DNA of 64,000 bases from an uncultured bacterium. GTDB taxonomy: Bacteria; Babelota; Babeliae; Babelales; Babelaceae. Both the position numbers and the translations under genes were made by a program. Shown piece by piece: positions 2,803 to 62,673 of this stretch. The stretch is taken from contig CAVRKK010000002.1 in NCBI GenBank assembly GCA_963722385.1, positions 64,001 through 128,000 on the forward strand, in the 5' to 3' direction. The first letter of the stretch is position 1; each line of letters opens with the position of its first letter. The notes below the pieces were generated by a model, which saw only the letters and a list, made by a program, of their open reading frames with translations, searched no databases and was not told the origin of the DNA.

Positions 2803-3755
2803 TCAAGCATGACTTGCATCCCATATATTGCCTCCTTTTACCATAACATTAAGTATGATTATAAGTTTACGCATAACAGCTACCACAGCCACTTTAAAAG
2901 TTTTACCTGCTTCTCGCAACCTTTTATAAAAAGATCTAAAAACAGAATTACATCGAATAGCAACAAGAGAGGCCATATATAAGGTTGATCGAGCTCTTTT
3001 TCTACCTCCACTAATAGCTGCTGTACCTTGGCTTTTGCCACTTTGTTTGATAAAGGGGGCCACTCCTAAAATTGCTCCGATTTCTTTGTTGTTTACATTG
3101 CCAAGCTCAGGAACTTCCGCCATTAGCGTATATACAGTAACCTTACCAACGCCCGGTGTACTGATTCGATAATCTTAGCTTTGGTATTAAACGCCTCGGA
3201 TTCGACTATTTGGTTAATTTCTTTCTCAATAGATTCAAGCTGTTTTTTCATAAATGAAATATGCTGCTCAATGAATTCCTTACAGTATCTTTGTTGCGGA
3301 TGTTGCAGTTTGTTATTTTCTTGTGTGATATTAGTAACAAGATCCATTCTACACTTTACTAATGCTCGCAACATTTCTTCATCTTCGGAATGGTTAGTCG
3401 ACTGGTGCTTTGACTGCTTTTGAGATGCAAACAAGGCTATCATCCGAGCATCGATCTTACCAGTCTTTGCCTTGATGCCTTCAGCAACAATAAATGCCCT
3501 AATTCGTTTTGCTTGAACACGCCATACCGCATAGTTGTTTTTGGCAAGTTTCTTGAGCATCAGATATTCATAGCCACCTGAAGACTCACATACGATTTGA
3601 GCAATTTTATGCTTAGATAGAATTTTAATCAGCTTGCTTAGCCCTTGCTCTGTATTGTCTATTCTTAAGTCTTTTTCTAGTGGGTATAGATGGACATCCA
3701 AAAACTCTTTAGATACATCTACACCAACATAAACTTGTGATACAATAGGTTTCAT
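2803..3755 (-). pseudogene. IS110 recombinase/transposase, frameshifted near 3158
   Basis: GVDVSK and VCESSG motifs; KTGKIDA (usually KTDxxDA); (S)VPGVG and QSGKS continue in another frame. Confidence 0.88.
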
Positions 3756-22420: not shown

Positions 22421-22831
22421 CAGAGCGAATTGAATTGAATCAAATCGCCTGCGCGGCTGGCGGCTAAGGGACATCGTCCCTTAGCAATCCCGATGCAACG
22501 GGCGAAGTAACGCATGCCTGTGTGTAGTTATCGTACGCAAAAGCGTACGATAACTTACGCCATTTATCATGTACGCGACGCTCCATGATAAAAACTATCT
22601 TCCGTCAGGAAGATTGCGGTAGCTATAAGCATGCGCCACGCATGGTTATAGCATTCATCAGCAAAAAATAAAGACAATATAGAAAGAAATAGAGATTAGC
22701 AATGGGTGCAGGGCCGCCGCCATGCCGCCCACCGCGTAGGTGTGCTCGCCGCATAGGCGCGCCCCGCTGCGTAAGCGTTCCCGTCGTAGCCTTGGCGAAG
22801 TCGGCCGCGTAGTCGCGCTAGCCGCGCAGGC
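22421..22831 (+). repeat. Structured intergenic repeat, copy 1
   Basis: GAATT/GAATC pentamers, 5 hairpins, closing stem 22447-22464/22724-22741; homologous to three other loci. Confidence 0.92.
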
Positions 22832-23339: not shown

Positions 23340-23500
23340 GCATGCGACGGGTGGGAGTTCTGAATAACGCCGGCTTAAAAGCCGGAGGTTCTAGGGTCGC
23401 GGTCATTCAAACAGCGTAGCCCTTTTAGGGATTTCAGTGAGCCCGTTGAACGCAACTCTGTCTGCGTTCAATTGATCTCTGCCCATGACGCATAGCTATG
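23340..23500 (-). ncRNA. Putative TnpB omega/reRNA (scaffold plus guide AACTCCCACCCGTCGCATGC); 5' limit approximate
   Basis: Overlaps tnpB 3' end and right end; internal hairpin CCCT-AAA-AGGG; position follows the known reRNA layout. Confidence 0.6.
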
Positions 23501-24533
23501 TTGAATGAAGCATTTACGTCAGCATGATCAAAGTGCCTACAATGAGGACACTTAAATAGTTTACCCTGGCGATTACCTCGTAGATGGCATTTACTACAAT
23601 CTTGAGAGGTATAGCTTGGATCTACGAGCAAAACAGGAATCCCAAGCAGCTTGGCCTTATACTCTATCTGCTTTTGCAGACCATAGTACGACCAACTGTG
23701 CAAAAGGTACTTGAAAGATATGCTTGCTCGTGCTCTCTTTCTTATTCCCTGCAAATCTTCTAGTTGTATTCCCAATCCATGTTCTTTAGCATATCGTACA
23801 ATAGTTGTACTTGCCTTATGTGTTAGATCTTTTACAATTCTTTTTTCTCGGTCCTCAAGCTGCTCAACCTTGCCAAATTTGCCTTGTTTTTGGAGGCTTT
23901 TTCTTTGAAAGCTATATTTCTTGTGAATATGAGCAGCTTTCTTGCCAAGCTTGAGCACTTTGCCCGTTTGCGGATTGGCCGCAACAGCACAATGTCCCGT
24001 TGTGTTAAGATCAACCCCTAAATAGCCTGATACTTGTATCTCTTCAGCTTCGGCTATCAATACAGATACGTATGCGTATTCTTCATCTATTTCTATCTGG
24101 TTGATCTTCTCAAAATCGTTTCTGAAATAATACTCGAGCATAAGCTTTAAACAACGTATCGTTATTATCTTTTCTTGGCGATCAACCTTGATAGCCTGCC
24201 CAGGTACCGTTAGCTTCACTCGCCGCACTTTTTTTATCTTCTTATTACTCGAGTACTTCTTCAATATTTGGTTAGAGATCGCTGAAGGTAGCCCCATCTC
24301 CTTAACATCTCGCGATGTGCGGCTTCTTGTTTGTAACCCAAAACTCGCTACCTGCCTCGCTTTTTCTAGCTCTTGCCTAAAATCTCTTTTATGCTTTATC
24401 TTATACGTTAAAAGCACTTCCTACTAATCCTCTTTTCCTCTATTTATTAAACAATCCTCAAATGTTTAACACATTTGTACTTTGTTTGCAACTCTTCATC
24501 CACGTGCTAAAGCACGTGGCTTTCCGTTGCGAA
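23360..24533 (-). mobile_element. IS200/IS605-family TnpB-only (IS1341-like) element
   Basis: Left-end hairpin CCACGTGCT-TT-AGCACGTGG preceded by AAAG, target TTAC outside; right-end hairpin CCGGCTT-TT-AAGCCGG preceded by GAAC, ending TCAG; no tnpA. Confidence 0.88.
23434..24417 (-). CDS. tnpB: RNA-guided endonuclease TnpB, 327 aa
   Basis: RuvC LGVDLN, QLEDL and DHADVNASFNIA; zinc finger CSKC..CPHC. Confidence 0.93.
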   Translation of the reverse strand: MLLTYKIKHKRDFRQELEKARQVASFGLQTRSRTSRDVKEMGLPSAISNQILKKYSSNKKIKKVRRVKLTVPGQAIKVDRQEKIITIRCLKLMLEYYFRNDFEKINQIEIDEEYAYVSVLIAEAEEIQVSGYLGVDLNTTGHCAVAANPQTGKVLKLGKKAAHIHKKYSFQRKSLQKQGKFGKVEQLEDREKRIVKDLTHKASTTIVRYAKEHGLGIQLEDLQGIRKRARASISFKYLLHSWSYYGLQKQIEYKAKLLGIPVLLVDPSYTSQDCSKCHLRGNRQGKLFKCPHCRHFDHADVNASFNIAMRHGQRSIERRQSCVQRAH

Positions 24534-24684
24534 GTAAAGAAATCCTTAGATTTCTTTTAGGCCAAGGCGCAACGGTACAGTGGCGAGATATGCAGCTAGC
24601 CACACATGAGGGTGTTCAATGCATAATCGATTTCATAGAACACGGAGGTATTTTTAATGATTTCGAAGCATTGCTGGTATTTCT

Positions 24685-25035
24685 TTAGAAACCCAAAAGC
24701 ATCCTAACGCGCAATTCAACTTGTTCCATAGTTTCATTTTTGATAGTACCCAAACTAGAATCTGAGAACCGCTCAAGAGAGACGGTGCGTAATTGATTGC
24801 ATATGATATATGAACGTTTTATTATACCTCCCTCAGGAGGTTCAAGAGGCACAAGCCATGATAGCGGCCTATATTGAGAAGTTAACGGTACAATTACAGC
24901 AAGTTCTGCTGGCCCCATATTAAATTGTTGAACAGAAAGCACCAAACATGGCCTTTTTTTAGCTTGTTCATGCCCACGGGTAGGATCAAGATCCACGACC
25001 CATATGCTACCTCGCATGATCGTTGACTTACTCAT
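24685..25035 (-). CDS. mazF: PemK/MazF toxin
   Basis: RGSIWVVDLDPTRGHEQAKKRPCLVLS, VPLTS, NQLRTVSLERF. Confidence 0.9.
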   Translation of the reverse strand: MSKSTIMRGSIWVVDLDPTRGHEQAKKRPCLVLSVQQFNMGPAELAVIVPLTSQYRPLSWLVPLEPPEGGIIKRSYIICNQLRTVSLERFSDSSLGTIKNETMEQVELRVRMLLGF

Positions 25036-25276
25036 AGATCTCAAGCCCATCCTCGAGGGTTGTGTCCCATTCTTCTTGTTCTTGCAGGTACTCTTTCCAT
25101 TTTTTTCTGTCTTTTTTTAAGGCAATATATTCTTCATTAGTTTTTTTAAAAAATTGTTCCCTAATAAAGGCTTCGATAGCTTTTTCAACGATAGACTGCT
25201 TTGATTTACCGAGAGTTTTGGCGAGCACATTTAAATGTTGATCTATGGCAGTACTAATTCTTATAGTCTTGGACAC
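25028..25276 (-). CDS. RHH antitoxin of the MazF module
   Basis: KTIRIS..LAKTLGKSKQSIVEKAI; acidic tail WDTTLEDGL; overlaps the toxin start. Confidence 0.82.
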   Translation of the reverse strand: MSKTIRISTAIDQHLNVLAKTLGKSKQSIVEKAIEAFIREQFFKKTNEEYIALKKDRKKWKEYLQEQEEWDTTLEDGLEIYE

Positions 25277-51211: not shown

Positions 51212-51709
51212 CTAAACTTTATGAATGCTGGTTTGTAAAAGATAGGGCTTTATACACAGGGATGTTTGCTCAGTAGATTGAAAAACAACGTGGAAGGGCG
51301 TTGGATTTCTTATGAGAGCACCGTAATGCTGGCCATGTGCCCATGCATCAGCTGTCTTCTGGAGAAGCGTAATAAGGACTTTTTTATCGTGTGGCGCTGC
51401 ATCAAGGACTTTATCAAAATGTTTAATAATAACCACATAGGCGGGAGCAGGAAGCCACTGTAAATCATTGAGACATTCATCAAATGCCTCCCAATTATGA
51501 CCAAAATAAGAGGGAAAGGCCATAACCGCTGCCCATTCATCAAATAAAGCGTCTTTTGTCTTACAATGTAAGCCATTAATAAGCTTTACCAGGGGTTGAA
51601 CGGGATTTTCCTTAAGAAGCCTACGAAGTTGATTGAGCTCGCGAGCACCACCTTTCAAAACATGCAGAAAGGGAGGACATAAGCAGGTAAGACATTTACT
51701 ATATTCCAC
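51212..51709 (-). CDS. Barstar-family inhibitor/immunity protein
   Basis: FPSYFGHNWEAFDECLNDLQWL. Confidence 0.88.
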   Translation of the reverse strand: MEYSKCLTCLCPPFLHVLKGGARELNQLRRLLKENPVQPLVKLINGLHCKTKDALFDEWAAVMAFPSYFGHNWEAFDECLNDLQWLPAPAYVVIIKHFDKVLDAAPHDKKVLITLLQKTADAWAHGQHYGALIRNPTPFHVVFQSTEQTSLCIKPYLLQTSIHKV

Positions 51710-54793: not shown

Positions 54794-55276
54794 AGCGCTT
54801 ACGCAGCGAGCGCGCCTGTGCGGCGAGCACACCTACGCGGTGGGCGGCATGGCGGCGGCCCTGCACCCATTGATTTTATGCTTCACTCTACTTGCTATAT
54901 CTTTTATCTCTTCTCGTCATAACCATGCGGGGCGCATGATTATGACAACCGCAATTTTCCTGACGGAAAATAGATTTTTATCATGGAGCTGAGCGACATG
55001 ATAATGGCGTTAGTTATCGTACGCTTTGGCGGACGATAACTACTCACCAAGCTTATAAGCATTAAGCATATTGCAACGGGATCCCAAAGGACATAGCGAT
55101 GCGGAGTAGCGCAACGCTTGTCCGTAGCAGCTTTTTGTAAAAAAAGCGATCAGCGGAGGCGGGACCCCCTTTGGCGCTCGCCGCGCAGGCGATTCGATTC
55201 AATTCAATTCAATTCGCTCTGCTACGTCAGCCCCGCCCGACTTCGCCGAGGCTAGGCCGGCCAAGCAGCGATTCAA
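54794..55276 (-). repeat. Structured intergenic repeat, copy 2 (with ~70-bp insert in hairpin 1 loop)
   Basis: Reverse-complement homolog of 22421..22831 with compensatory changes. Confidence 0.92.
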
Positions 55277-60658: not shown

Positions 60659-61004
60659 GAATTCAATTGAATCGAATTGAATCGCCTGCGCGGCTGGCGG
60701 TTAAGGGACATCGTCCCTTAACAATCCCGATGCAATATGCTTATAAGCTTGGTGAGTAGTTGTCGTCCGCAAAAGCGTACGACAACTAATGCCATTATCA
60801 TGTGCGCTGCGCTCCATGATAAAAACATATCTTCCGTGAGAAAGATTGCGGTAGCTCTAAGCATGCGCGGCGCATGGTTATAGCATTCACACGAGTTACA
60901 AAATATAGCATACAGTAAGAAATAAAATCAATGGGTGCAGGGCCGCCGCCATGCCGCCCACTGCGTAAGTGTGCTCGCCGCATAGGCGCGCCTGCTGCGC
61001 AAGC
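60659..61004 (+). repeat. Structured intergenic repeat, copy 3
   Basis: Same hairpin series; near-identical to copy 4. Confidence 0.92.
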
Positions 61005-61020
61005 ACCGGAGGAAACAAGA

Positions 61021-61725
61021 ATGCTTAAAAAAACTTTACTTACCCTCGCGATTATTACTCATATACCTGCTTACGGGCAACAGCTTTATACTGAATCTGA
61101 ATGCGAATCCTTAAGCAGCTACGTGCTTGATGCCATCAAAAAAAATCATGCAGCCGTGGTTAAAGACCTTACGTCTCATTTACTAAAATGCTCGAAACTT
61201 GACCGCTTAAAGCGCGGCGTAGATTTCATAGATACTAATGCGGGACTTCTTGCTGCTTACGTTCTTGCAACTATCGGCGCAAACTTAGACAATGCCCTCC
61301 CGGCTGCAATATACTGGCACAATATACCGACCGCAAAATACCTGCTTGAAAATGGCGCCTGTGTTAACGGCTTAATTGACGTAGCTCCTGATATGTCCCC
61401 AGAGGAGCTGATCCCGCTCATGCATTACGCTATTCAGAAGGGCTATAGCGAAGAAGTTGAACTGTTAGTGCGTTACGGGTATGACCTGAATAGCTTTTTT
61501 GGGGATATGACGCCGCTTATGACTGCAGCATGGTATGGCCAAAACGACATCGTGAAAATTCTACTCGAACGCGGGGCTGACGCGCGAATACGCAATAAGG
61601 ACGAGTACACCGCCCTGGATTATGCCTTTAGATGGCCAAGCGCCTTAGGCTGGTCATGCCTTAACCCAGCTACTCTTAGATTACTCGAGCAAGCAACTGC
61701 CAACCAAGAGGGCTGTCGTTTTTAA
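61021..61725 (+). CDS. Secreted ankyrin repeat protein
   Basis: GGAGG RBS, signal peptide, MTPLMTAAWYGQ..ERGAD..YTALDYA. Confidence 0.87.
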   Translation: MLKKTLLTLAIITHIPAYGQQLYTESECESLSSYVLDAIKKNHAAVVKDLTSHLLKCSKLDRLKRGVDFIDTNAGLLAAYVLATIGANLDNALPAAIYWHNIPTAKYLLENGACVNGLIDVAPDMSPEELIPLMHYAIQKGYSEEVELLVRYGYDLNSFFGDMTPLMTAAWYGQNDIVKILLERGADARIRNKDEYTALDYAFRWPSALGWSCLNPATLRLLEQATANQEGCRF

Positions 61726-62260: not shown

Positions 62261-62673
62261 CTACGCAGCCGACTTCGCCAAGACCACGACGGGAACGCTT
62301 ACGCAGCGGGCGGCATGGTCGCGGCGGCCCTGCACCCATTGATTTTATTTCTTGCTGTATATGCTCATTTTTGTAACTTGTGTGAATGCTCTAACCATGC
62401 GCGACGCATGCTTAGAGCTACCGCAATCTTCCTCACGGAAGATATGATTTTATCATGGAGCTTAGCGACATGATAATGGCATTAGTTGTCGTACGCTTTT
62501 GCGGACGACAACTACTCACCAAGCTTATAAGCATATTGCATCGGGATTGTTAAGGGACGATGTCCCTTAACCGCCAGCCGCGCAGGCGATTCGATTCAAT
62601 TCAATTCGCTCTGCTACGTCAGTCCGCGCCCGACTTCGCCGCGGCTACGTCGGCCAAGCAGGCGATTCAATTC
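62261..62673 (-). repeat. Structured intergenic repeat, copy 4 (~30-bp deletion in the 3' arm)
   Basis: Reverse-complement homolog of copies 1 and 3. Confidence 0.92.

Follow-up and report, generated by a model that had tools for sequence, protein, structure and literature searches.

A dispersed multi-hairpin repeat of a Babelaceae genome, probably a non-autonomous mobile DNA element with REP-like ends

Introduction

The closest described systems are the REPINs and BIMEs associated with RAYT, which consist of an inverted pair of short palindromes, lie between genes in many copies, occur in tandem arrays and are non-autonomous (PMC3116915, PMC6006769, PMC8266576, PMC3733652). REPINs also show compensatory changes (PMC3116915). 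Elements of the IS200/IS605 group (IS608, ISDra2) insert on the lagging-strand template (PMC5027513), and integron attC sites work as folded single strands, with an activity set by the template strand on which they lie (PMC5371416). Another system for comparison is the RRS of Escherichia coli, a structured repeat of 200-400 nt with a GGGTGCAG-footed stem-loop and an orientation tied to replication (10.1101/2023.10.01.560376, PMC10287960, PMC13308219). The RRS is conserved in position, occurs in two copies, contains a predicted G-quadruplex and keeps the strand of this stem-loop on the lagging-strand template, where the G-rich strand of its hairpin makes gaps (PMC13308219).

The window analysed here is a stretch of 64,000 nt (G000:C2:64001-128000) from a 1.60-Mb genome (G000) that is 93% complete. 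It holds four copies of a multi-hairpin repeat which is probably a non-autonomous mobile DNA repeat resembling REPINs and MITEs, with hairpins that act as single-stranded DNA at the replication fork. Unlike REPINs, the repeat encloses a multi-hairpin cargo of 200-300 nt instead of a short spacer, and no RAYT was found; unlike attC sites, it comes with neither cassette genes nor an integron integrase. Its likeness to the RRS lies in a short motif only, without homology at the level of models. Apart from this RRS motif, the literature searched contains no description of the family or of its end module.

Architecture of the repeat

The four copies, their hairpins H1 to H5 and the compensatory variants that a sequence-only reading of the window had quoted are all present. 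Beyond these five hairpins, the right end carries a sixth (H6), followed by a tandem array of 13-nt mini-hairpins. In the following, the top strand is the strand that reads into the right end, and the features of the copies are:

22427..22831, + strand: copy 1, full element of type A, with pentamer flank, left end, H1-H5, A-rich linker, H6 and right-end array
22427..22446, + strand: left flank of copy 1, RAATY pentamers in variable number, seen at 25/29 scored left ends
22444..22462, + strand: left terminal inverted repeat of copy 1, equal to one mini-hairpin unit read on the - strand
22463..22485, + strand: H1 of copy 1, left-end subterminal stem-loop, whose loop bears nested insertions in other copies
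22526..22555, + strand: H2 of copy 1, cargo hairpin
22564..22591, + strand: H3 of copy 1, cargo hairpin with invariant stem and variable loop
22597..22614, + strand: H4 of copy 1, hairpin with GNNA loop, common to types A, B and C and to truncated copies
22622..22652, + strand: H5 of copy 1, hairpin with the highest covariation and most of the G.T pairs
22653..22703, + strand: A-rich linker of copy 1, unstructured
22704..22725, + strand: H6 of copy 1, right-end subterminal stem-loop with GGGTGCAG foot, a module found across phyla
22730..22831, + strand: right-end array of copy 1, 13-nt mini-hairpins with GCRNA loop; the array is broken at 22786-22800, where one unit of a second palindrome family lies
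54794..55276, - strand: copy 2, type A, left end 55175-55193, upstream of a topoisomerase gene
55084-55174, - strand: large nested palindromic insertion in H1 of copy 2
60659..61004, + strand: copy 3, type A, left end 60681-60699, downstream of a PEP-utilising enzyme gene
62261..62673, - strand: copy 4, type A, left end 62572-62590, both ends bearing second-family palindromes

Both ends follow one design, in which a subterminal stem-loop is followed outward by at least one 13-nt mini-hairpin, and the mini-hairpin loop reads GCRNA in 86 of 87 units. It is rather likely that two inverted REP-like ends here enclose an exchangeable hairpin cargo. Unlike in REPINs, GT[AG]G is missing from the foot of the inward-facing stem: the four nucleotides before H6 are GTGG, ATGG, ACGG or ACAG, and GTAG is found only within the mini-hairpin loop. 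The first reading, which saw no coding ORF, needs one correction: a mechanically called ankyrin ORF (60931-61725, +) begins within the right end of copy 3. The repeat may donate N-terminal codons to this ORF; ankyrin genes are numerous in the window.

The initial count of four proved too low for the genome, in which iterated nhmmer searches (E<1e-7) recover at least 49 loci, with at least four further family fragments beyond them. By type, the loci comprise 26 of type A (the window type), 10 of type B, 4 of type C and 9 that retain only the right half, one of these right halves being retyped as C elsewhere; the left halves of types B and C differ from that of type A. All 49 are intergenic, 25 on the + and 24 on the - strand. 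Their ends are ragged, and no clear target duplication accompanies them.

Nested palindromic insertions occupy the loops of end hairpins. One of about 70 nt, itself made of two hairpins, is found at 55084-55174 (-) of the window and at about 12 other places in G000, either in end-hairpin loops or in the linker, and a similar palindromic insertion sits in the same end-hairpin loop in the same-genus genome G001. The second palindrome family, which interrupts end arrays, yields short matches in about ten of 60 relatives. Palindromes resembling this second family also precede a frameshifted gene for a small GIY-YIG nuclease (G000:C1:296557-296762, L046).

Modules have been reshuffled between copies. 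Between H1, the linker and H4, all four combinations of states occur in 3/3, 9/9 and 3/3 tests, as against 0/30 tests for H4 and H5, and in the copy at G000:C1:314007 the loop of H2 is inverted.

Folding, covariation and the RNA alternative

Copy 1 folds far better than shuffled sequences, both as RNA (z -9.6) and as DNA (z -8.7), with none of 100 shuffles as good in either case. The covariation first noticed in the four copies is borne out by an alignment of 17 full copies (from the 26 type-A loci, picked mostly to avoid large insertions), in which pairing is kept in 99.4% of cells and both partners change at 18 of the 62 pairs; the mean after shuffling is 7.3 and 0/500 shuffles reach the observed value, in a control that ignores relatedness. 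When partners are slid, 0-3 pairs show such double-sided changes. The stem of H3 is without variation in this alignment.

Two structural details of the sequence-only reading had to be revised. The H4 loop, described there as GNRA-type, fits GNRA in no more than 4 of the 40 copies; GTCA is found in 20 and GTTA in 12. What was read as an "18-bp closing stem" is in fact the terminal inverted repeat, which contains two mismatches (C.A, T.C) besides its two G.U pairs and for that reason is weak evidence for the strand; in the predicted fold of copy 1, the left end pairs instead with the outermost right-end unit. Among the cells of the top strand, G.T outnumbers A.C by 34 to 7, 30 of the 34 stemming from two H5 positions; the count by position is 5 against 6.

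Strong covariation and folding are what would be expected of a non-coding RNA with a defined structure, or of an element at mRNA 3' ends, that multiplied in this lineage under selection acting on the RNA. Of 25 full copies, 19 fold better as RNA on the top strand, and 30 of the 49 copies are co-oriented with their upstream gene, which makes read-through of copies likely. Set against this, the cargo differs in the sister species, position is not conserved, H4 loops are seldom GNRA, and no sigma-70-type promoter was detected around copy 1; the inverted H2 loop and the replication-linked orientation described below are signs of events at the level of DNA. Selection as RNA is thus improbable, and the earlier suggestion of a new structured RNA is disfavoured by the differing cargo of G001, the loops, the unconserved position and an orientation that follows replication. 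No Rfam family reaches its gathering threshold over the window, and an E-value search likewise gave nothing meaningful. Covariation of this strength most likely marks a DNA-level repeat here, not an RNA gene, which matters for non-coding RNA screens.

Relatives, empty sites and distribution

A covariance model of the repeat finds matches in one of 40 other genomes of the family, that of G001, whose proteins have a median identity of 56.5% to those of G000; a blastn-type search across 60 relatives, G001 among them, did not recover the core from any. G001 holds a family of its own with 20 copies (median core identity 87%, 18 aligned), together with one right half of the G000 kind. The terminal repeat and the right-end stem-loop are common to both families, an A-rich linker also lies before the right end of the G001 repeat, and the inner hairpins are wholly different.

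Orthologues can be assigned on both sides for 22 of the 49 G000 loci, and the five syntenic sites displayed are empty in G001, with gaps of, for example, 479 against 5 nt and 448 against 72 nt. Orthologous genes that flank an element in both genomes number 2, with 3.1 expected, and this, together with the empty sites, identifies the G000 copies as independent insertions. About 50 intergenic insertions therefore postdate the split from G001. Breaks of synteny are not enriched in elements (7/23 syntenic against 48/121). DNA contigs from four sequencing runs contain no joint across a whole copy and are too fragmented for the inference of empty sites. The proposal that the element is mobile, non-autonomous and folded in single-stranded form is upheld by the empty orthologous sites, the ends that resemble REP doublets and the G.T excess on the top strand.

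The right-end pattern has a scattered distribution. Within the class, just 3 of the 251 genomes have it; it also occurs at 99 GTDB loci (80 fetched) that include Clostridiaceae, Binatus/'delta', Planctomycetota and Chloroflexi, and at 25 metagenome loci; two Streptomyces matches resemble chance hits. Its forms are singlets, tandem arrays (291 units in the Clostridiaceae genome G065) and inverted doublets of 111-370 nt, and such ends score E 1e-6 to 1e-11 with the model. The viral contigs and phages searched contained neither the end motifs nor the element, the plasmids searched gave only three 35-nt matches at E 0.03, and the first pattern tried against metagenomes gave no match. By sequence comparison, the end module is cross-phylum and the cargo is not.

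Two Rfam families contain related pieces. The first hairpin of Clostridiales-2 (RF02937) can be aligned to the end stem-loop of a relative in Planctomycetota at 22 bits and E 0.003 (gathering score 58.6), and the consensus of IMPDH (RF02994) holds the mini-hairpin word at 16 bits and E 1 (gathering score 95.4); both scores are far below gathering, and only a short piece is in common. Motif screens of this type cannot separate single-stranded DNA motifs from RNA motifs (PMC5737381).

Candidate enzymes

An enzyme of the RAYT or TnpA type had been proposed as the mover of the element. No RAYT-type gene exceeds the cut-off in G000, G001, G064 or G065 (genomes in the RAYT/Y1 search being 74-93% complete where stated), and the two intact Y1 enzymes of G000 are IS200 transposases with differing end hairpins and no family unit nearby. 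No repeat unit lies within 1.5 kb of the Y1 loci of G000, G066, G067 and G068. Of reverse transcriptases, the other partner considered, there is a single fragment with an open frame of 141 aa (G000:C1:278592-278867, L048), which adjoins no copy.

The main rival to a repeat that is re-oriented at the fork is peel-and-paste transposition by a HUH enzyme, because IS608 and ISDra2 use the lagging-strand template (PMC5027513). A Y1 enzyme acting in trans, be it an IS200 TnpA or the product of a RAYT-like gene that has since disappeared, would excise the bottom strand and insert it on the lagging-strand template, and the strand bias would reflect insertion, not flipping. The ends are indeed subterminal hairpins, many copies keep only the right half, and G000 has its two intact IS200 TnpA genes. 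The left end reads outward as a hairpin followed by tandem TTCAA-like pentamers, an arrangement which we take to resemble the right-end cleavage motif of IS200/IS605 elements. Against this, no Y1 gene was detected in G001, with its 20 copies, or in G065, with its 291 units; the end hairpins of the G000 IS200 and TnpB elements differ from those of the repeat, no ends being shared with resident IS200/IS605 elements; the boundaries in G001 are of IS5 type with TA; and none of 22 loose matches is a convincing core-less arm pair. Taken together, a HUH mechanism is unlikely.

Close to copy 1, an IS200/IS605-type element with TnpB only (1180 bp, about 23360-24540 of the window; tnpB 23434-24417, -) has a 99.3% identical copy at G000:C2:1260354, and its right-end hairpin resembles those of the resident IS200 elements. 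An omega-RNA of TnpB or IscB was rejected as identity of the repeat, which lies outside this separate 1180-bp unit found twice. IscB-like ORFs adjoin none of the copies; two related ORFs of 400-430 aa (G000:C2:1160226-1161509 and C1:291690-292889) have an N-terminus that we presume to be IscB-like.

Other enzyme classes gave no candidate. The sole tyrosine recombinase is a housekeeping Xer-like gene with homologues in 38 of 40 other family genomes. IS110 is missing from G001 and has no repeat unit beside its six loci; the window itself carries an IS110-family transposase in two split ORFs (2803-3755, -). One small GIY-YIG gene in G068 has a right-end unit on a single side, and two GIY-YIG genes in the unit-rich G065 have one nearby. 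DUF559 and GxxExxY were not detected in G000, G001 and G064, nor Rep_trans in five of six genomes; IS91-type Y2 gave no match, as did its positive control. Among 1297 ORFs of 80 loci, no mobile protein is common to the loci, and two long inward-facing pairs of ends enclose ordinary genes.

In G001, the core is flanked by a pair of distinct arms, 32-40 nt long, and their outer 17 nt correspond to the left end of an IS5-family element in G000. Of 40 arm ends, 21 are preceded by TA (7% expected at random), and in 6 of 20 copies both ends are. Two TA-bounded IS5-family elements are resident in G000 (C2:1252025-1252833 and C2:837468-838320), the first with a left end equal to that of arm X of the G001 repeat. 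Because of the arm match and the TA at the boundaries, the G001 family was probably spread by an IS5 transposase in trans, as judged from these ends; such a transposase was not found in G001 itself.

These arms raise the question of whether the window copies, too, derive as MITEs from an insertion sequence of DDE type (IS5 or other) and have outer arms that decayed. The IS5-type arms of the sister family, with TA at the boundary, and the two IS5-family elements in G000 speak for it. However, the best IS5 end match in 98 flanks of G000 elements is at most 11/16, the window copies are without arms or IS5-type inverted repeats with TA, and other insertion-sequence ends are absent from these flanks except for an ISAs1 end adjoining one copy. 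Unlike an ordinary IS5-family MITE, moreover, the G001 element holds an invertible hairpin core. A decayed MITE is accordingly the most improbable of the alternatives weighed here.

Orientation to replication

The G-rich strand, as judged by GC skew, was taken as the leading strand, which is the standard assumption. In G001, just 2 of the 20 copies have the top strand of the core as lagging-strand template (p=0.0004, with both global and local skew); the arms show no bias (7/20, p=0.26), and neither do the genes (544/1037). The core occurs in both orientations inside IS5-type arms (13 against 7), and its orientation tracks the direction of replication. The rarer orientation is found in 6 of the 7 copies whose arms would place the top strand on the lagging-strand template and in 1 of the 13 others, a contrast (Fisher p=0.0012) that restates the same G001 bias. 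A tree built from 18 cores (20 in all) is weakly resolved, with one strongly supported branch, and orientation requires five changes on it. A single origin of the six flipped cores that it includes is rejected (p-AU 0.0012); gene conversion could scatter orientation labels on so poorly resolved a tree. Of the 18 copies in the 'safe' orientation, 13 also run in the direction of their upstream gene.

Replication-linked flipping of the core rests mainly on G001 and is weakly echoed in G000, where the top strand is the lagging-strand template in 17 of 49 copies (p=0.044), or 18 of 49 (p=0.085) by local skew over 20 kb, and in 9-11 of 26 for type A alone; only two G000 copies bear the signature of a flip. 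For the remaining genomes, counts were made in noisy 5-kb windows over several genome sets, with p-values uncorrected for multiple tests: G068 gives 3/16 lagging (p=0.021, for 16 fetched of its 23 listed matches) and 14 other Binatia-type loci 2/14 (p=0.013), no bias is seen in the Clostridiaceae genome G065 (13/26), in G064 (3/5) or at metagenome loci (3/8), and Planctomycetota show the opposite trend (11/16, p=0.21). A bias to one replication template, as would be looked for in an IS200/IS605-type element, is seen, but it does not say which strand acts.

For the preferred reading, a mobile repeat whose hairpins act as single-stranded DNA, these observations suggest the following course. The top strand would fold once it is exposed as lagging-strand template, and the paired ends and hairpins could then drive template switching between the arms. 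Copying of one arm onto the other would leave compensatory changes, and the same switching may also invert loops and flip the core. Copies would thereby build up in the stable orientation, in which the leading-strand template carries the top strand. Spread would depend on enzymes acting in trans, in the G001 family on an IS5 transposase.

A different proposal is that the repeat is a replication element useful to the host, akin to the RRS of E. coli, which would program gaps in the lagging strand. The same GGGTGCAG-footed stem-loop is present in both, and in the RRS that strand makes gaps as lagging-strand template (PMC13308219); RRS-like sequence also occurs at up to 13 places in one Klebsiella record, where it behaves like a dispersed repeat. 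Yet model R1 has no RRS match at E<=1, local alignment is marginal, with shuffles as good in 8/300 trials for copy 1 and 180/300 for a G001 copy, the orientation is the opposite of that of the RRS, positions are unconserved, and within the class the end pattern is confined to 3 of 251 genomes. A host function of this kind is very unlikely.

A broader and tentative extension of the mobile-repeat reading, which we regard as doubtful, would make the end module an undescribed cross-phylum class of single-stranded-DNA repeats that distantly includes the E. coli RRS and Rfam Clostridiales-2. One strand of such a module would obstruct lagging-strand synthesis, and the element would re-orient by fork-driven inversion between its own terminal repeats, requiring no dedicated recombinase for the flip and being able to ride on other transposons; the RRS would then represent a domesticated form, retained in the risky orientation. 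If flipping is true, the family offers a natural, countable readout of replication-strand-specific inversion and a testable lead on the origin of the unexplained RRS hairpin.

With respect to neighbouring genes, two copies (G000:C2:23572-23735 and C2:26225-26562) adjoin the 3' ends of tRNA-Arg genes. The window also contains a MazF/PemK-like gene (24685-25050, -) and a barstar-like gene (51212-51709, -).
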